Shown here: positions 4,961 to 42,171 of the stretch, piece after piece
Layout of the letters: every line of letters begins with the position of its first letter
Numbering within the stretch: the stretch's first letter is position 1
DNA from: Desulfosoma sp.
GTDB lineage: Bacteria > Desulfobacterota > Syntrophobacteria > Syntrophobacterales > DSM-9756
NCBI GenBank assembly: GCA_037481835.1
Contig: JBBFKW010000008.1
Coordinates: 32,001-96,000 of the forward strand
Direction of reading: 5' to 3'
Length of the DNA: 64,000 nucleotides
Translations under genes and position numbers: made by a program
The notes under the pieces: generated by a model
The model's database searches: none
What the model saw: the letters and a program-made list of their open reading frames with translations, nothing else
What the model was told of the DNA's origin: nothing

Positions 4961-5320
4961 ATGAAGTTATGTTTTGTCATTTCCATCGGATTCGAGCGGT
5001 CGGGGTCTGCGACGCGGGCCATGCAGTTTGCAAGCATCGCCGCCGAGCAAGGGCATCACGTGGAGGTCTTCCTCATCGACGATGCCATTCATTGGGCGCA
5101 GATCGGCATGGCGGAAGGGATCCGCTCTTCGACGGGCGAGCACATGAAAGACCTTCTGGACACCCTCATCGCCCGAAAAACCCCCATTCACGTGTGCAAG
5201 GCCTGTGCGGACAAGCGGTTGGTCTCGCCCGATGACCTCATCGCAGGGGCGGTCATTTCGCCGGCACCGGTCCTTGTAAAGATGATCGGCGATCCCGAGT
5301 ACAAGGTCCTGACTTTTTAG
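4961..5320 (+). CDS. DsrE/DsrF-like family protein
   Basis: A..AAEQGHHVEVFLIDDAI, IHVCKACADKR; AGGAG SD. Confidence 0.85.
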   Translation: MKLCFVISIGFERSGSATRAMQFASIAAEQGHHVEVFLIDDAIHWAQIGMAEGIRSSTGEHMKDLLDTLIARKTPIHVCKACADKRLVSPDDLIAGAVISPAPVLVKMIGDPEYKVLTF

Positions 5321-35180: not shown

Positions 35181-36107
35181 ATGAAAAGATGGGTCTTTTT
35201 GTTTCCCGGCCAAGGGTCCCAGTATGTGGGCATGGGCAAGGACTTGTATGAGAACTATCCGAAAGTTCGGGAACTGTTCCACCGTGCCGACGATATTCTC
35301 GGCATGGGGATCACCAAGCTCTGCTTCGAAGGGCCCGAAGACGTCCTGACCCAGACGCAAAACGTCCAGCCGGCCATCACGGTGGCCAACCTGGCGTGCC
35401 TCACGGTCTTGGCCCATCACGAAATCTTCCCGGTGGCGGCCGCCGGGCACAGCCTGGGCGAATACAGCGCCCTGTACGCCGCCGGTGTCTTGTCGCTGGA
35501 AGACACTTTGAAACTCGTCCGATGGCGCGGGCTCTATATGCACGAGGCATCCTTGGAGACGCCCGGGGCCATGGCCGCCGTCATGGACATGCCGGAAGAG
35601 AGGCTTCAAAACATCTGCCGGCTGTGCGATGTGGAAATCGCCAACATTAACAGCCCGGACCAGGTCATCATCACGGGACCCGTGGACGCCGTCGACAGGG
35701 CTTTGGAAGCCAGCGCCGCCGAAGGGGCCAAGAAATGCGTGAAGCTTAATGTGAGTGGCCCGTGGCATAGTCGGTGCCTGGAATCGGCCCGACAGAAGTT
35801 CGAACCCCATGTGCGGGCCGCAGCTTTTTCCGACCCGAGAATCCCCATCGTCAACAATGTGGACGCCAAGCCCCTCAAAAACGCCGCCGAAGCCCCGGAA
35901 AAGCTTGTTCGGCAAATCTGCGGCGCCGTCTTGTGGAAGCAATCCATGGAGTGGTTTTTGGCCAACGGCTATGATCACTTTGTGGAAGTGGGACCCAAAA
36001 AGGTCCTCCGGGGGCTCATGCGGCGTATCGACCGGAAAGTCATCATCCACAACGTGGAAGATGCCGCAACCCTGGCCTCATTCCTCCAGGCCAACGGCTC
36101 CGACTAG
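35181..36107 (+). CDS. fabD: Malonyl-CoA:ACP transacylase
   Basis: FPGQGSQYVGMG, GHSLGEYSAL, LNVSGPWHS, EVGPKKVL. Confidence 0.95.
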   Translation: MKRWVFLFPGQGSQYVGMGKDLYENYPKVRELFHRADDILGMGITKLCFEGPEDVLTQTQNVQPAITVANLACLTVLAHHEIFPVAAAGHSLGEYSALYAAGVLSLEDTLKLVRWRGLYMHEASLETPGAMAAVMDMPEERLQNICRLCDVEIANINSPDQVIITGPVDAVDRALEASAAEGAKKCVKLNVSGPWHSRCLESARQKFEPHVRAAAFSDPRIPIVNNVDAKPLKNAAEAPEKLVRQICGAVLWKQSMEWFLANGYDHFVEVGPKKVLRGLMRRIDRKVIIHNVEDAATLASFLQANGSD

Positions 36108-36269: not shown

Positions 36270-38429
36270 TCACTCATGGGTCTCTTGATACAGGACTTGT
36301 ACGGCTTGGTGGATGACGGTTTCCGGGACGGCGGTGCGTCTTTCGACGCGGCCGATACCCTGTGGGACGATCCACACGAGTCCTGAGGCGCCTTTCTTCT
36401 TGTCGTGGTGGATGTGGCGAAGCAGCCCTTGGGAATCGGCCGCAAGGGGCGTCGTCAGCGGCAGGTGATAGGCCCGCAGGACGCGATCCATCCGCGCCGC
36501 CAGTTCCGGATCCGTTACCCCCAAAAGGATCCCCATTCGGACGGCCACCCTCATCCCGAGGGCCACCGCATGACCGTGGGGAAGCGTGTAGCCGCTCAGG
36601 GCTTCCAGGCCGTGACCCGTAGTGTGCCCCAGATTCAGCAGTTGGCGCAGCCCGAAATCCTTTTCGTCGGCCGCCACGTAACGGCCTTTCAAGGCAAGGC
36701 TTCGAGAGACGAGATTCTGCGCCATGGAAAGCGGCAGCGGGAAGGACACCCCTTTCGGGCCGCAGGCATCGGCATGGGCTTCCAGGGTTTCCATGAGGCC
36801 GCCGTCGTCTAGGAGGGCGTACTTGATCACTTCGGCCATGCCGTTTTGCCATTCCGCATCGGGCAGTGTCTGGAGAAACACGGGATCCACCAGAACGGCC
36901 TGGGGGTGATGGAACGTGCCGATGAGGTTTTTCCCTTCCTCGAGATCCACCCCCGTTTTTCCTCCGAGGCAGCTGTCCACCTGGGCCAAAAGCGTTGTGG
37001 GCACCTGGACCAGGGGAACGCCCCGCATGAAGATGGAGGCGAGAAAACCGATGACATCCCCCGTGACCCCGCCTCCCACGGCGACAAAGACGCTGCCGCG
37101 GTCCGCGCCGTGCCTCAGGGCAATCCGGGCGAGTTCTTCCACCGTCTGGAGGCGCTTTTTGTCTTCACAGGCGTCCCATTCGATCCATGCCTCGGAAAAC
37201 TGCTCGCGGCCCAAGGTGTCCCCCCACAGGGACGCCACCTTCCGGTCCACGAAGAAGTAGGGGCGGCGTTCCGGGACATGGTCCCGCAGCCATGAGCGAA
37301 GGGACTTGGCCCCATGAGGTTCCAAGGTGACGGCAGGGGGAAGGCACAGAGCCCAAGAGGGCCCCTCGTGAATTTTCATTGTCGTCGCCTGGGAGACCGC
37401 AGCGTGCGGTGACCGGGGCGCGGCGTCCCCCGTCCCGACGGCGTCCTCCATCGAAGTTTCAGCGTGCCCTGACAAAGCAGAAGCCGGAGAATTATCCTCT
37501 TGGTGGGCCGGGGCTTCGCGGCCTTTACCGTCCCCGGCGTTCGGCAGACTGTGCCCGTGGTTGTTGGCGTTGTGGTGCCAAGTGAGGAGTCTGTTCGTTT
37601 CTTCCAGGGCCTGGAGGCAGAAGTCCCCGAAATGGGACCGGGTTTTTTCGAAGGCCTCAAGGAAGTCCTGCCACCGGCCGTGTTCCACGGCATCGGCGGT
37701 TTCGGAAAACACGCGGCGAAGCACCCGAAGCGCTTCATTCTTATAGGGGTTTTCCATGGCGATGGCCGCATAGAGGGCCGGATCCTGGGCGAACAGCCTT
37801 CCGATGAGGTCCAATTCCAACCGGTAGATGGGGCTCGTATACCGCAGGCTTTCCGCGGCGTCGATCCCCAGGTCCCTGAGACAATGCCCCAAGACCACCG
37901 TCGTCACGTGGGGGATAAGCTGGATGACGGTCATCATGCGGTCGTGTTCTTCCGCCGAACACACGTGAATCTTGAGACCCGCGCGGCGAAGCACATCCAT
38001 GAGCCATTCCCGGGGACCGTCGGCCACCCGGCCCGGGCACACGATCATGGTCTGGCCGACGAAATCCTTGACATAAGGCCCATACATGGGATGGAGGCCC
38101 ATGTACCATGCGGCGGATCCTTCCATGGCTTTCAGGGGCGGCACTTTCAAAGAGCAAATGTCCACGACCAACTGGCCCGATCGAAACCGCGGGGCCAGGC
38201 TTTCCAATATACGGAAAGCTTTGTGGAGCGGCACGCTGACGAGGACGGCATCCGACCGATCGATGACGTCTTCGTTGCTAAGCGGCGTGGCCACATCGGA
38301 TATAGCGACCGGGTATCCATGGTCCTCGAAGAACCGATGAAAGAGCTTGCCCATGGCGCCCAGGCCGCCGATGATCCCGATGCGGGGTTTGTCCTTCCAG
38401 TGACTAAAATCCGACACGCTTTCCGTCAT
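36270..38429 (-). CDS. aroB: Prephenate dehydrogenase (TyrA) - 3-dehydroquinate synthase (AroB) fusion
   Basis: IIGGLGAMG, DICSLK, LHPMYGP, EHDRMM; then GGGVTGD, MRG..QVPTTLLAQVDS..GGKTG, GKNLIG, LNLGHT.GH. Confidence 0.85.
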   Translation of the reverse strand: MTESVSDFSHWKDKPRIGIIGGLGAMGKLFHRFFEDHGYPVAISDVATPLSNEDVIDRSDAVLVSVPLHKAFRILESLAPRFRSGQLVVDICSLKVPPLKAMEGSAAWYMGLHPMYGPYVKDFVGQTMIVCPGRVADGPREWLMDVLRRAGLKIHVCSAEEHDRMMTVIQLIPHVTTVVLGHCLRDLGIDAAESLRYTSPIYRLELDLIGRLFAQDPALYAAIAMENPYKNEALRVLRRVFSETADAVEHGRWQDFLEAFEKTRSHFGDFCLQALEETNRLLTWHHNANNHGHSLPNAGDGKGREAPAHQEDNSPASALSGHAETSMEDAVGTGDAAPRSPHAAVSQATTMKIHEGPSWALCLPPAVTLEPHGAKSLRSWLRDHVPERRPYFFVDRKVASLWGDTLGREQFSEAWIEWDACEDKKRLQTVEELARIALRHGADRGSVFVAVGGGVTGDVIGFLASIFMRGVPLVQVPTTLLAQVDSCLGGKTGVDLEEGKNLIGTFHHPQAVLVDPVFLQTLPDAEWQNGMAEVIKYALLDDGGLMETLEAHADACGPKGVSFPLPLSMAQNLVSRSLALKGRYVAADEKDFGLRQLLNLGHTTGHGLEALSGYTLPHGHAVALGMRVAVRMGILLGVTDPELAARMDRVLRAYHLPLTTPLAADSQGLLRHIHHDKKKGASGLVWIVPQGIGRVERRTAVPETVIHQAVQVLYQETHE

Positions 38430-38489
38430 GGTTCCTCCATACGCCGTCGTTCCTCGCGCCTTCCGGTTTCAAGGCTTCTTGCCCCTCCT

Positions 38490-39563
38490 TCACGAGGCCC
38501 CGGCCGCCGCCTTGGCCGTATCGTCCCGGCCTTTGCGATGGGTCCTGAGGATGGTTCGCCCCACGGCTTGGGCCACGGGCTCGAGCCGATCCAGGAGGTT
38601 CGCCATGGCTTCGGGCGTCAGGGATTGGGATCCGTCACTCAGAGCCTCGTGGGGCCGCACATGCACTTCCAGCATGAGCCCGTCGGCGCCGGCGGCCACG
38701 GCCGCACAGGCCATGGCGGGAATGAGGTCCGTGCGACCCAGGGCGTGGCTGGGATCCACGATGACCGGCAGGTGGGTGAGTTTTTTCAGCAAAGGCACGG
38801 CGCTGAGGTCCAAAGTGTTTCGCGTTTCCGTCTCAAAGGTGCGGATGCCGCGTTCGCAGAGGATCACCTTCTCGTTGCCGTGGCTCACGATGTATTCGGC
38901 CGACATGAGGAACTCTTTGATGGTGGCCGACATGCCGCGTTTGAGGATCACCGGCTTGTCCACCTGCCCCACTTCGGTCAAGAGTTTGAAGTTTTGCATG
39001 TTGCGCGTGCCGATTTGGAGCACGTCGGCGTATTTGTAGACCAGAAGCAGGTCTCGGGCGTCCATGACCTCCGTGACCACCGGCATGCCGGTGCGGCTGC
39101 GCACGTCGCTCATGAATTTCAGGGCCAGTTCCCCAAGCCCCTGGAAGCTGTACGGGGATGTGCGGGGTTTGAAGGCGCCGCCCCGCAGCATGGGAATGCC
39201 CAGGGCGTGGAGAGCGTCCGCGATTTCATCAAGAACCTCCCTGCCCTCCACAGCGCACGGGCCGGCGATGATGGGAATGGAGCGACCGCCCAGTTCCACG
39301 TGGGCGCCGATGGAAATGGTCGTGTTTTCTTCCTTGAACTCGCGGCTCACGAGTTTGTACGGCTGCAGGATGGGATGTGCCGCTTCCACGCCCGGAAAGC
39401 TTGCAAAAGGAATCTCCTGGATGAGGTCCCTTTCGCCGATGATTCCCACGATGGTGCGGCGTTCGCCCCGGGAAAGATGGGTGCGCAACCCCATCTTTTC
39501 CACTCGAGCCACCAGTTGCCTCAGTTCTTCGTCCGTGTGTTCGGGTTTCATGACAACAATCAT
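38490..39563 (-). CDS. aroF: DAHP synthase, type I-beta with N-terminal regulatory domain
   Basis: IAGPCAVE, RGGAFKPRTSPYSFQGLG, QIGTRNMQNF, LCERGIR, DPSH. Confidence 0.95.
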   Translation of the reverse strand: MIVVMKPEHTDEELRQLVARVEKMGLRTHLSRGERRTIVGIIGERDLIQEIPFASFPGVEAAHPILQPYKLVSREFKEENTTISIGAHVELGGRSIPIIAGPCAVEGREVLDEIADALHALGIPMLRGGAFKPRTSPYSFQGLGELALKFMSDVRSRTGMPVVTEVMDARDLLLVYKYADVLQIGTRNMQNFKLLTEVGQVDKPVILKRGMSATIKEFLMSAEYIVSHGNEKVILCERGIRTFETETRNTLDLSAVPLLKKLTHLPVIVDPSHALGRTDLIPAMACAAVAAGADGLMLEVHVRPHEALSDGSQSLTPEAMANLLDRLEPVAQAVGRTILRTHRKGRDDTAKAAAGAS

Positions 39564-39650
39564 GGCAGGTCCTCCTTGCCTTGTGTCTGAGGAAAACGCG
39601 CGTGTTTCCCTCTTTGTTTAAGTTATCGGCACGGTCGTGCCGAACCTCCA

Positions 39651-39685
39651 AAACACAAAAGGCCGTGAGCTTGTGCCCACGGCCT
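39651..39685 (-). terminator. Second intrinsic terminator of the aroF leader
   Basis: Minus strand AGGCCGTGGGC-acaa-GCTCACGGCCT followed by TTTGTGTTTT. Confidence 0.65.
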
Positions 39686-39697
39686 GGCAAGGTCCAT

Positions 39698-39735
39698 AAA
39701 AAAGGCCGTGGGCTTTTGGGGTCAGCCCACGGCCT
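39698..39735 (-). terminator. Attenuator terminator of the aroF leader
   Basis: Minus strand GGCCGTGGGCT-loop-AGCCCACGGCC followed by TTTTTT. Confidence 0.8.
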
Positions 39736-39765
39736 CGGTGCCGGCGTCCAAGGACTTCGGACGGC

Positions 39766-39852
39766 TCAGCGCGGTGGTCGGCCGACCCCATCGGGGCCGT
39801 AATACCACCCATAATAAAAGTAAAAGCGCCGAGCCGTTCCCTTGATGCTCAT
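39766..39852 (-). CDS. Aromatic-amino-acid attenuation leader peptide MSIKGTARRFYFYYGWYYGPDGVGRPPR
   Basis: Translated by hand; AAAGGA SD; 8 aromatic codons out of 9; precedes two terminators and aroF. Confidence 0.85.
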   Translation of the reverse strand: MSIKGTARRFYFYYGWYYGPDGVGRPPR

Positions 39853-39906
39853 CGTCCGTCCTTTCAGGTGGACCATCACGCCCTGCGTACTCTTGGCAGG
39901 TGATCC

Positions 39907-39936
39907 CTTATAGAGGAGCTCATCGGGGGATGTCAA
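39907..39936 (-). promoter_or_regulatory. Sigma70 promoter of the aro leader/operon
   Basis: TTGACA-N18-TATAAG on the minus strand. Confidence 0.6.
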
Positions 39937-40006
39937 GAGCCTTGGTGCATTTTTTTCGGCACTGCGGGGAGGGGGTCGTCGTGCGCGCTCTCTTTAGAAC
40001 TTTTCC

Positions 40007-40035
40007 TTGACAAGCCGAGGGGGATTGCCTATAGG
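40007..40035 (+). promoter_or_regulatory. Sigma70 promoter of rplM-rpsI
   Basis: TTGACA-N17-TATAGG. Confidence 0.55.
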
Positions 40036-40083
40036 ACTGAGCTTCGAGTCGGTCACCAGTGGCGGTTTAATGGAGATATACGC

Positions 40084-40539
40084 ATGAAAACGACCAGTGC
40101 CAAGTTTGATGCCAACGGAAGAAAGTGGATCGTGGTGGACGCCGAAGGTCAGGTTCTCGGCCGGTTGGCCAGCGAAATCGCCGTGAGGCTTCGGGGCAAA
40201 CATCTGCCCACCTTTTCCCCCCATCTGGATACGGGCGATTTCGTAGTGGTCATCAACGCCGAAAAAGTTCGTCTCACCGGCCGCAAGTGGGACCAGAAAA
40301 AATACTATCGCCATTCGGGCTACCCCGGAGGGCTCAAGGTCACCACGGCGAAGAAACTCAATCAGGAACACCCCGAGCGGCTCATTGAATTCGCCGTGCG
40401 CGGCATGCTCCCCAAGAATCGACTGGGCCGCAAGCTCCTCAAGAAGCTCAAGGTCTACAGCGGGGCCGAGCATCCTCATGAAGCCCAGCAGCCCACCCCG
40501 TTGAAACTCGGCGGCCGGGCGCCGGTAAAGGAGTCGTAA
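40084..40539 (+). CDS. rplM: 50S ribosomal protein L13
   Basis: [47 protein letters not shown]. Confidence 0.98.
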
Positions 40540-40540
40540 C

Positions 40541-40933
40541 ATGGCGGAACAAAGCTTTTATGCCACGGGAAAGCGCAAGTCGGCGGTAGCCCGGGTATGG
40601 CTTAAGCCGGGCACGGGTCGCGTGATCATCAACAACAAGCCCATCGATGAATACATCGTTCGGGAAACGAGCAAAATGCTCATCCATCAGCCGCTCATGC
40701 TCACCGGCACTTTCGGCAAGCTGGACGTATACGTCAACGTGAGCGGCGGGGGGCTGAGCGGCCAAGCCGGCGCCATCAAGCACGGCATTTCCAAGGCCCT
40801 GATGGAATTCAACCCCGAGTTCCGCCAGGTTCTTAAGCGCGCCGGATTCATCACCCGAGATTCCCGCGTGAAGGAACGGAAAAAATACGGGCAGCGCGGC
40901 GCACGAGCTCGGTTCCAGTATTCCAAACGCTAG
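40541..40933 (+). CDS. rpsI: 30S ribosomal protein S9
   Basis: [44 protein letters not shown]. Confidence 0.98.
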
Positions 40934-41133
40934 GAGTTCATCCGGGAAAGGATGCGCCTCGGGAGCGTGCTCCTGCCGCACGGTATCGCTGGGCGGGTCG
41001 GAGGTTCAAGCTCCCGGGAAATCACGGACCGGCCGACCTTTTTCATACCGGGAAGGAAACCTTTCAGGGGCTCTCGCCGACGGCGCGGGCCCCTGAACTT
41101 TGTTCGGGCTGTGCCGTCGAAAGGAAGACTGTC

Positions 41134-42171
41134 ATGGTGCCTGTGTCCATCGCCGGAGCGTCCGGGTATACGGGTTTTGAACTGCTAAGGCTATTGAGCG
41201 GCCATCCGCGGGTGCGTGTCACCACGATCACCTCTCGCGCCAACCAGGGCGAAGCCCTCGCCGACGTCTATCCGGCCCTGCGCGGCCACGGCGATCTGCA
41301 CTTTGAGGATACGGACCCGGACGTCCTCACGCGAAACGCCCGACTCGTCTTTACCGCCCTGCCCCATCATGCGGCCATGGAAATCATCCCATCCCTCTTG
41401 GACCGTGGGGTCAAGGTGGTGGATCTGAGCGCCGATTTTCGATTCCGGGACGCCGCCGTCTACGAGGCCTGGTATGAAAAGCACACGGCGCCCCATCTTC
41501 TGGAAGAAGCCGTCTACGGCCTTCCGGAGCTGTATCGGGATCGGATCGCCGGTGCCCGCCTCGTGGGCAATCCGGGATGCTATCCCACAAGCATCATCCT
41601 GGCCTGCGCCCCGCTCGTAAAAGAAAAGCTCATCGTGCCGGAAACGATCCTGGCCGATTCCAAATCGGGGGTGACGGGAGCCGGCCGAGGCTTGGCGCTT
41701 ACGACCCATTACTGCGAAGTTAACGACGGCTTTCGGGCCTACAAGGTCGCCGAACATCGCCACACGCCCGAAGTGGAACAGGAATTGAGCCTCCTTGCGG
41801 GAAGGCCTGTGCGCATCACCTTTACGCCCCATCTGGTGCCCATGAGCCGCGGGATTTTGAGCACCGTGTATGCCCAGCTGGCACCCGGCGTGGATGCATC
41901 CAAAGTGACGGAGGCCTTCCGCAGCTTTTATGAATCGGCCCGATTCGTCCGCCTGTGCCCTCCTGGGCAATTCCCCACGACCTTGCAGGTGCGCGGCAGC
42001 AATTACTGCGATATCGCCTGGAAGACCGACCCGCGCACGGGCCGGGTGATCGTGGTTTCCGTCATTGATAACCTGACCCGGGGCGCTTCGGGCCAGGCCG
42101 TGTGCAACATGAACCTCATGCTCGGCTTTCCCGAAGACTGCGGGCTGGAAGCCGCACCGTGGCAGCCGTGA
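41134..42171 (+). CDS. argC: N-acetyl-gamma-glutamyl-phosphate reductase
   Basis: [43 protein letters not shown]. Confidence 0.95.

Follow-up and report, generated by a model that had tools for sequence, protein, structure and literature searches.

The question raised by this locus is what a very short open reading frame (ORF), unusually rich in aromatic codons, does ahead of the genes for the entry step of the shikimate pathway, and which amino acids it reads. The locus lies in a stretch of 64,000 nucleotides from Desulfosoma sp. (contig JBBFKW010000008.1, positions 32,001 to 96,000), here called the window, whose positions are used as coordinates throughout; the leader and the operon that follows it, aroF (3-deoxy-D-arabino-heptulosonate 7-phosphate (DAHP) synthase) and a tyrA-aroB fusion, are on the minus strand. 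As judged from its sequence and from folding models, the leader is very probably a ribosome-mediated (leader-peptide) transcription attenuator of aroF / tyrA-aroB, and as such it is a genuine and well conserved example of an attenuator type that is already known. Attenuator control of the aroF entry step had been proposed in an earlier sequence-only reading of the window, and this core, with its translated leader, has strong support from conservation, covariation and constrained folding. A short ORF led by a Shine-Dalgarno sequence, a run of end-product codons, an intrinsic terminator before aroF and a predicted ribosome-dependent antiterminator are all found. Novelty may plausibly reside in a relayed double terminator and in a codon-specialised set of sister leaders. 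To the Syntrophobacterales sulfate reducers and syntrophs the leader adds an unannotated and well supported regulatory switch.

The leader ORF and its codon run

39864-39859, minus strand: Shine-Dalgarno sequence AAAGGA, 6 nt ahead of the ATG
39852-39766, minus strand: leader ORF, MSIKGTARRFYFYYGWYYGPDGVGRPPR, ATG at 39852, 28 codons, TGA ending at 39766
39825-39799, minus strand: regulatory codon run, codons 10-18, TTT TAC TTT TAT TAT GGG TGG TAT TAC

Codons 10-18 specify two Phe, five Tyr and one Trp, that is eight aromatic residues in nine, as the sequence-only reading had counted them; the 28-codon frame, its AAAGGA and the TTGACA-N18-TATAAG promoter that it described are likewise all read in the sequence. 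The run favours minor codons, with TTT used in 2/2 and TAT in 3/5 cases in a genome that prefers TTC (67%) and TAC (68%). Of some 107,600 stop-to-stop frames of at least nine codons in the whole genome, four reach seven or more aromatic residues in nine, and the leader is the sole mixed Phe/Tyr/Trp frame at 8/9, the other frame at that level being a poly-T run. A chance origin of the aromatic run is in practice excluded.

An in-frame ATG (39876-39874, minus strand), within GTGATG, lies eight codons upstream of the start next to the Shine-Dalgarno sequence, and has a counterpart in G003 and G001 and a TTG in its place in G002, while three genomes of genus g3 have no such upstream start downstream of their -10 box. 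Using this ATG the leader might be 36 codons long in the window's genus. A longer ORF from an upstream TTG was rejected, the TTG being upstream of the -10 box.

Conservation of the leader

The leader DNA finds matches in seven of the eight other genomes of the family, each with a homologous ORF whose core reads FYFYYGWY or a close variant (..RRFYFYYGWYYGPEGVGRPPR, ..QGFYFYYGWYCDPFGVGRPPR, ..FFTGFYFYYGWYCGPSGVSRPPC, ..FFTGFYFYYGGYYAPPGVAPPPC, ..AAGVYFYFRWYYCPVGVGPPMI). The eighth, G004, an assembly of 380 contigs, gave no leader match and no ortholog-level AroF match either. Seven family sequences make up alignment A1, on which the helix percentages given below rest, each being the share of alignment cells that can pair. 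The Shine-Dalgarno sequence and the ATG are kept in all seven, the former as an equally spaced purine-rich AGGA/GAGG.

Across the order, 30 aroF loci were retrieved and 28 used, L025 being dropped for having 217 nt upstream only and L040 for being a 54%-identical paralog. A small upstream ORF with at least five aromatic residues in nine is present at 28/28 of these loci (at least six in 27/28), which is what the sequence-only reading had suggested looking for in relatives, and a U-tailed hairpin follows 20-51 nt past the leader stop codon at every one of them; 13 loci carry two hairpins and 15 one only. The leader peptides are otherwise dissimilar (for example MFQSFYYYCYYYYCDYSRRDAGVCA, MHTWRYYYYYYFCPSGGNASGMCCL and MNSGLYYYWFYYYPLGGTASGMLGN). 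That peptides so unalike keep their aromatic codons in frame points to selection on in-frame aromatic codons, and argues for translation.

Outside the order the arrangement thins out. Among 40 upstream regions of the best AroF matches from other Desulfobacterota families, 37 show at most four aromatic residues in nine, and a leader of at least 5/9 followed by a terminator occurs at 3/40 loci, the exceptions including MSINGLQFNSSFFFGWYYYITSEIGARIR; one distant Desulfobacterota leader, L160, reads FFFGWYYY. At 71/80 genome-contig loci, mostly Planctomycetota, the content is again at most 4/9, and five (L057, L058, L059, L079 and L089, four of them labelled Gemmatimonadaceae) have Tyr-rich leaders with terminators. 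Metagenome loci with sufficient upstream sequence reach at least 5/9 in 15/69 cases. As an observation apart, Gemmatimonadaceae-type leaders (for example MSIRASYYGYYYYATPLGP) with strong terminators stand ahead of the same type of DAHP synthase, also at nine metagenome loci such as L183, L195 and L220; no sequence likeness was seen between these and the Syntrophobacterales leaders.

This pattern bears on whether the RNA could be a protein- or ligand-binding leader of riboswitch, TRAP or T-box kind, in which the ORF is incidental and untranslated. Such an element might account for a stem core, CCGTGGG/CCCACGG, that is unusually conserved across the order and in the sister attenuators described below and could be a factor binding site, and for an aromatic codon run that is near-invariant in nucleotides within the family. 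It is nevertheless very improbable, given that the Shine-Dalgarno sequence and the ATG are conserved, and that across the order the nucleotides diverge while the aromatic codons remain in frame. A cmscan search of 38000-42000 against Rfam, at E up to 10, gave no family match in 39560-39940, and a T-box was rejected on that ground. The best argument against an untranslated element is that the sister leaders carry Trp, Phe or Tyr codons according to the pathway downstream.

RNA structure of the leader

39800-39794, minus strand: segment 1, CGGCCCC, 5' half of the hairpin within the ORF in the minimum free energy (MFE) fold, its helix 91.8% paired in seven sequences
39790-39780, minus strand: segment 2, TGGGGTCGGCC, the candidate antiterminator strand, pairing with segment 1 (off) or with the 5' arm and loop of terminator 1 (on)
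39727-39717, minus strand: segment 3, GGCTGACCCCA, upper 5' arm and loop of terminator 1, partner of segment 2
39736-39698, minus strand: terminator 1 (T1), hairpin 39736-39702, 13-bp stem, 9-nt loop, 6 U, -26.8 kcal/mol
39685-39651, minus strand: terminator 2 (T2), hairpin 39685-39660, 11-bp stem, 4-nt loop, U-rich tail, -21.5 kcal/mol

Shuffled versions of the 341-nt leader fold far less well than the leader itself (z = -6.8, 0/100 as good). A U-tailed terminator before aroF and tyrA-aroB had been noted in the sequence-only reading, and two such hairpins are found, the gene identities coming from Pfam; T2 is also detected by a terminator scanner, and the two stems are 98.8% (T1) and 97.4% (T2) paired in the seven family sequences. 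Free of a ribosome, the leader has as its MFE fold a long hairpin in which CGGCCCC pairs with the GGGGTCG of segment 2 and GGTGGT with ACCACC, the region of codons 6-9 pairs with the end of the ORF, and an internal loop accommodates the aromatic codons.

The alternative pairing, and the one that seems central to the switch, is an 11-bp antiterminator helix (39790-39780 with 39727-39717) that is 95.9% paired and includes two compensatory pairs; one of its positions is C-G in the window and in L170, U-G in L169 and U-A in other relatives. The long loop of T1 is conserved in sequence and the tetraloop of T2 is variable, as is accounted for by the pairing of the T1 loop with segment 2. The full duplex of segments 2 and 3, which extends over the remaining 5' arm of T1 with small internal loops, has an energy of -30.4 kcal/mol against -22.0 +/- 2.9 for dinucleotide shuffles (2/200 as good). 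In other families the pairing takes a different register (for example CGCTTCAGG with CCTGAAGCG), and cognate pairs of leader and terminator give -20.3 kcal/mol against -17.5 for non-cognate pairs, with 0/10,000 permutations as low.

The sequence-only reading had offered as antiterminators the leader segments TACGGCC and CGGCC, complementary to GGCCGT(G) in the 5' arm of the terminator. That complementarity is present and the principle was right, but the register was wrong. The two pairings with GGCCGTG can form in 93.9% and 91.4% of cells in the seven family sequences, yet they are of just 7 and 5 bp and lack compensatory changes. A ribosome stalled on the last aromatic codons would cover TACGGCC, which also overlaps segment 1, and CGGCC belongs to segment 2 but pairs in another register.

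Constrained folding, in which the nascent RNA was taken as far as the T1 loop (before the 3' arm of T1) and 26 nt were masked around the ribosomal A site, links the antiterminator to ribosome position. At 37 C all 11 of the 11 antiterminator pairs form wherever in codons 10-18 the A site is placed, and for each of the eight aromatic codons this is so at 55 C as well. Leaving out the ribosome, or moving the A site on to codon 19, gives none of the 11.

These observations lead to a mechanism of the following kind. When charged Tyr-tRNA and Phe-tRNA are plentiful, the ribosome would pass along the whole 28-codon leader, segment 2 would be under the ribosome or held in its hairpin with segment 1, and T1 would be able to fold so that most transcripts end at its U-tract, T2 stopping those that escape T1. 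Under a shortage of charged Tyr-tRNA or Phe-tRNA, the ribosome would stall on codons 10-18 and mask the 5' side of the leader hairpin, leaving segment 2 free to capture the upper part of the T1 5' arm, with the loop, as these emerge, in what would be a kinetic trap.

A number of results weigh against this account or fail to lend it support. The off-state helices are 74-99% paired in the seven sequences with no compensatory change, most helix positions being invariant within the family. In 20 sequences of families f2 and f3 the real leader duplex is matched by anything from 1 to 155 of 200 shuffles, and the advantage of cognate over non-cognate pairs is largely a family-block effect (f1 with f1 -26.0, cross blocks -15.7 and -18.1, the rest with the rest -16.8). 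A ribosome placed on the stop codon still leaves 7/11 antiterminator pairs. Across the 28 leaders the share of the T1 5' arm that is paired upstream hardly differs between ribosome-free (0.56), stalled (0.59) and stop-codon (0.61) states, a test that does not discriminate because a free GC-rich arm always finds a partner in an MFE fold; the cost of freeing that arm rises on stalling in just 19/28 leaders. Finally, as soon as the T1 3' arm has been transcribed, all states tested have T1 as their MFE structure (13/13 pairs), from which it follows that antitermination must be kinetic and that equilibrium folding cannot test it. The choice made by the trp attenuator is likewise kinetic.

The end of the leader peptide raises a separate issue. 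Pro-Pro is found near the end in 8/8 family leaders, followed directly by Arg or Cys and the stop codon in seven (PP[RC]-stop) and as PPMI-stop in G006, and so the C-terminal Pro-Pro-Arg/Cys-stop might be a nascent-peptide arrest sequence that senses, at termination, a free metabolite or the activity of elongation factor P rather than tRNA charging at the aromatic codons. We consider this highly unlikely, as leaders from other families of the order end otherwise (..GMLGN, ..GMR) and keep the aromatic run. The Pro-Pro codons, CCACCG, moreover pair as a 3' strand with the leader GGTGGT, in a helix that is 90.5% paired, and their conservation may be explained by this RNA constraint, since the same bases (39775-39767, ACCACC) are the helix strand. 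As an alternative within the attenuator itself, a slow step at Pro-Pro and the stop codon could hold the ribosome over segment 2.

The tandem terminators

For the role of T2 there are two competing readings. Between the 3' arm of T1 and the 5' arm of T2 the complementarity is complete, with 10/10 pairs in 7/7 family sequences. Were the T1 3' arm left unpaired by the antiterminator it might pair with the T2 5' arm, and one stalled ribosome would then disarm both stops and aroF would be transcribed. On the available sequence and folding evidence, the probability of such a relay appears about evenly balanced. The statistics come from 13 aroF-type tandem loci representing seven non-redundant lineages, the sister attenuators being judged by eye. 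The duplex of T1 3' arm and T2 5' arm has energies of -16 to -25 kcal/mol in 13/13 of these leaders. It is more stable than the mirror control, the duplex formed by the T1 5' arm and the T2 3' arm, in 12/13, and than the T2 stem itself in 10/13. At 37 C the RNA as far as the T2 loop, when bearing a stalled ribosome, has the antiterminator together with the relay helix as its MFE structure.

The other reading takes T1 and T2 to be plain serial fail-safe stops with no relay, T1 alone being regulated and T2 constitutive, and this we hold at somewhat less than an even chance. In its favour T2 is the MFE structure whenever its 3' arm is present, a single terminator is enough at the 15 order-level loci that have one, and the likeness of T1 to T2 may come from duplication, or could have arisen by concerted evolution of the duplicated hairpins. 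The relay state is also not the MFE at 55 C, a point that tells against the relay in that the stretch occurs in hot-spring metagenome runs. What tells against simple fail-safe stops is that, of the five tandem lineages outside the family, four have a relay duplex stronger by 7-9 kcal/mol than the mirror control, and that the relay pairing covaries where the control pairing does not (32/5000 permutations as low, compared with 380/5000 for the control). The one G-U of the T2 stem, conserved in 7/7, falls where the relay helix has a G-C, and a strong constitutive terminator behind a regulated one would cap induction.

No literature was found on leader peptides with tandem terminators, a weak blank given that most subscription journals lay outside the coverage. 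The covarying cross-pairing of the two terminators presents a testable design in which one sensing event would control two stops. A second regulatory mini-ORF between T1 and T2 was rejected, its ATG at ~39696 not being conserved.

Amino acids probably read by the leader

The 28 order-level leaders hold a total of 150 Tyr, 53 Phe and 19 Trp, with Tyr present in 28/28, Phe in 26/28 and Trp in 17/28. It is likely that the leader reads mainly Tyr with Phe and that Trp is read elsewhere, a division in keeping with the presence of tyrA in the operon. A separate Trp-rich leader on a second DAHP synthase operon suggests that sensing is split between the operons of the isoenzymes.

The sequence-only reading had gone further and proposed that one leader integrates all three aromatic aminoacyl-tRNAs with a weighting to Tyr. 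The Tyr weighting stands. That Phe-, Tyr- and Trp-tRNA charging are weighed jointly here, with the single TGG a working third input for opening the pathway entry, is unlikely, and an equal three-way sensing is doubtful. The TGG (codon 16) stands between Tyr codons and is one of the codons at which a stall yields 11/11 antiterminator pairs, the W is kept in 7/8 family leaders and appears in the FFFGWYYY of the distant L160, and DAHP synthase does supply all three aromatic branches. However, W is absent from 11/28 order-level leaders, and G007, of the same family, has GGG (Gly) in place of the window's TGG. In classical attenuators a single regulatory codon causes little stalling in comparison with runs. 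The genome moreover has dedicated Trp-rich leaders, at the second DAHP synthase with trpE and at a TrpB-like gene, and the aroF operon adds tyrA, of the Tyr branch, and no Trp gene.

Sister leaders in the same genome

U-tailed hairpins with the CCGTGGG core were sought genome-wide in two motif scans, and the sequence upstream of the matches was read by eye. Such hairpins are rare in the genome, and nearly all the clean compact ones adjoin aromatic leaders. Together with the leader of the second DAHP synthase operon, these sister leaders are as follows.

L121:1009-1250 (G000:C6, outside the window): Trp-rich leader ..HFWWCWWWCVAHGCADGGASL (..FWWCWWWC..) with two U-tailed hairpins, ahead of a second DAHP synthase (51% identity, FXD domain) and then anthranilate synthase I (trpE)
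L125:145-335 (G000:C1): Trp-rich leader ..IRWSWWWQAW ahead of a PALP enzyme, TrpB-like in appearance
L127 ~5030-5200, minus strand (G000:C7): Trp-containing leader ..LWRHGKWWCG.. ahead of indolepyruvate-type ferredoxin oxidoreductase subunits and ABC permeases
L126:65-400 (G000:C2): Phe-rich leader MMTRFFRFYFIGEKGGFFFRKSTHGRAG with two terminators, ahead of a PaaK-like AMP-binding ligase and LivJ/LivH-type transporter genes
L128:128-388 (G000:C21): Tyr-rich leader ..VYSGDSFYYGYGY.. / ..VYSGDSFYYGYGYLRRSARR with two terminators, ahead of a five-gene LivJHMGF-type ABC transporter

The layout of Trp leader, second DAHP synthase and anthranilate synthase recurs in G002 (L123), G005 (L124) and G015 (L122). 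In three of the four sisters tested, namely L121, L126 and L128, the 3' part of the leader pairs with the T1 5' arm and loop at -24 to -34 kcal/mol, with at most 2/300 shuffles as good. At L126 this is a 13-bp perfect antiterminator (-27.1 kcal/mol, 0/300 shuffles as good), and at L128 the duplex of leader and T1 has -33.8 kcal/mol (1/300); that of the TrpB-like sister is weak (-17.8 kcal/mol, 94/300). The arrangement at L126 hints at a supply of Phe from phenylacetate, and the transporter behind L128 may be an uptake system for Tyr or an aryl acid. In this way the leaders flag transporters and aryl-acid enzymes as belonging to aromatic amino-acid supply.

The sisters could be copies of a modular 'aromatic attenuon', a cassette of leader ORF and two CCGTGGG terminators in relay that was duplicated at least six times in this genome and re-coded by codon swaps, a proposal to which we give slightly less than an even chance. 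The copies would be one for Tyr/Phe (aroF), three for Trp (second DAHP synthase with trpE, the TrpB-like gene and the indolepyruvate oxidoreductase), one for Phe (the PaaK-like aryl-CoA ligase with its transporter) and one for Tyr (the ABC transporter). If so, one stalled ribosome would disarm both terminators of each tandem copy, and an anaerobe would run its whole aromatic economy by attenuation alone, from synthesis and the choice of isoenzyme to uptake and possibly reductive arylacetate assimilation. A covariance model of the cassette would annotate such leaders across many genomes.

Relation to known systems

The closest case is that of Corynebacterium glutamicum, in which the aroR leader is a short ORF with Phe-Tyr-Phe ahead of the DAHP synthase gene aroF, stalling raises transcription of the operon, and a separate Trp leader serves the trp operon (PMC4046766, PMC11802643). 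In C. glutamicum Tyr availability is reportedly without effect on the aroF operon (PMC11802643). Common to both is a mixed Phe/Tyr leader directly ahead of DAHP synthase, whereas the Desulfosoma leader has a longer and Tyr-dominated run (8/9), two terminators, a tyrA-aroB fusion and a sulfate-reducing host of the Desulfobacterota. The likeness is functional only, with no sequence relation and no homology implied.

The uORFC-13-1 motif ahead of the Acholeplasma aroF has a conserved upstream ORF, a promoter, a ribosome-binding site and a terminator stem, with attenuation proposed; one or more Phe are encoded by its U-run, and the terminator is single (PMC8632094). It comes from a different phylum, and has no relation in sequence or structure to the leader in the window.

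The enterobacterial pheL-pheA and trpL attenuators are catalogued in Rfam as Phe_leader and Trp_leader. They share with the present case the logic of a leader ORF with its codon run, alternative 1:2, 2:3 and 3:4 pairings that exclude one another, and an intrinsic terminator. They differ from it in that here the run mixes codons, a DAHP synthase is regulated, the terminators are in tandem and there is no Rfam match. In the his attenuator of Salmonella and E. coli a shift at the 5' end is propagated through a chain of alternating hairpins, of which only the last is a terminator. The same relay principle is proposed here, running from the pairing of segment 2 and the T1 5' arm to that of the T1 3' arm and the T2 5' arm, but here a U-tailed terminator already stands in the middle of the chain.

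In E. coli every one of the parallel DAHP synthases is tuned to an aromatic end product of its own. These isoenzymes are under amino-acid-specific repressors (PMC11802643). In contrast to such DNA-binding repressors, the tuning here would be by two leader peptides, one rich in Tyr/Phe and one in Trp. Entry to the shikimate pathway would thereby be divided between two DAHP synthase operons, each with a leader peptide of its own, an arrangement that would parallel, at the level of RNA, the repressor control of the E. coli isoenzymes. No literature was found on leader-peptide attenuation in the Syntrophobacterales or on the window leader in the Desulfobacterota, a blank that carries little weight with subscription journals mostly uncovered.

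Promoter, operon and neighbouring sequence

39936-39931, minus strand: -35 box TTGACA; TTGAC kept at the same position in six relatives inspected
39912-39907, minus strand: -10 box TATAAG, 18-nt spacer to the -35 box; TATAA[GA] kept in relatives
39563-38490, minus strand: aroF, DAHP synthase with a ferredoxin-like regulatory N domain (Pfam DAHP_synth_1 E 2.7e-78, DAHP_snth_FXD E 1.4e-19)
38429-36270, minus strand: tyrA-aroB fusion, prephenate dehydrogenase and 3-dehydroquinate synthase (Pfam PDH_N, PDH_C, DHQ_synthase, DHQS_C)
35181-36107, plus strand: convergent acyltransferase, the next gene past tyrA-aroB, bounding the operon

The boxes were read from the sequence, and the corresponding -35/-10 pair was found again in the six relatives inspected; the probable transcription start is at ~39900. 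Among the sequencing runs listed as containing the stretch, none is of RNA. A consensus promoter scanner called no promoter at the leader, because it requires T as the last base of the -10 box, which here is G. The operon is of two genes, aroF and tyrA-aroB, the latter being the last, and a ribosomal protein S9 gene lies upstream of the leader on the opposite strand. AroF is 96% identical to an uncultured Desulfosoma record and 86% to that of Desulfacinum (order Syntrophobacterales).

A weak match to the thiamine pyrophosphate (TPP) riboswitch at 41056-41143 on the plus strand (20.6 bits against a gathering score of 54.3, E 0.88), just upstream of an aspartate-semialdehyde dehydrogenase gene (41134-42171), was the one match from the Rfam search of 38000-42000 and is probably due to chance. 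Between T2 and the aroF ribosome-binding site are two more hairpins on the minus strand, at 39642-39627 and 39612-39589, of which at least the first (CGGCACG...GTGCCG) is kept within the genus in alignment A1; the pair may stabilise the mRNA or provide a processing site.

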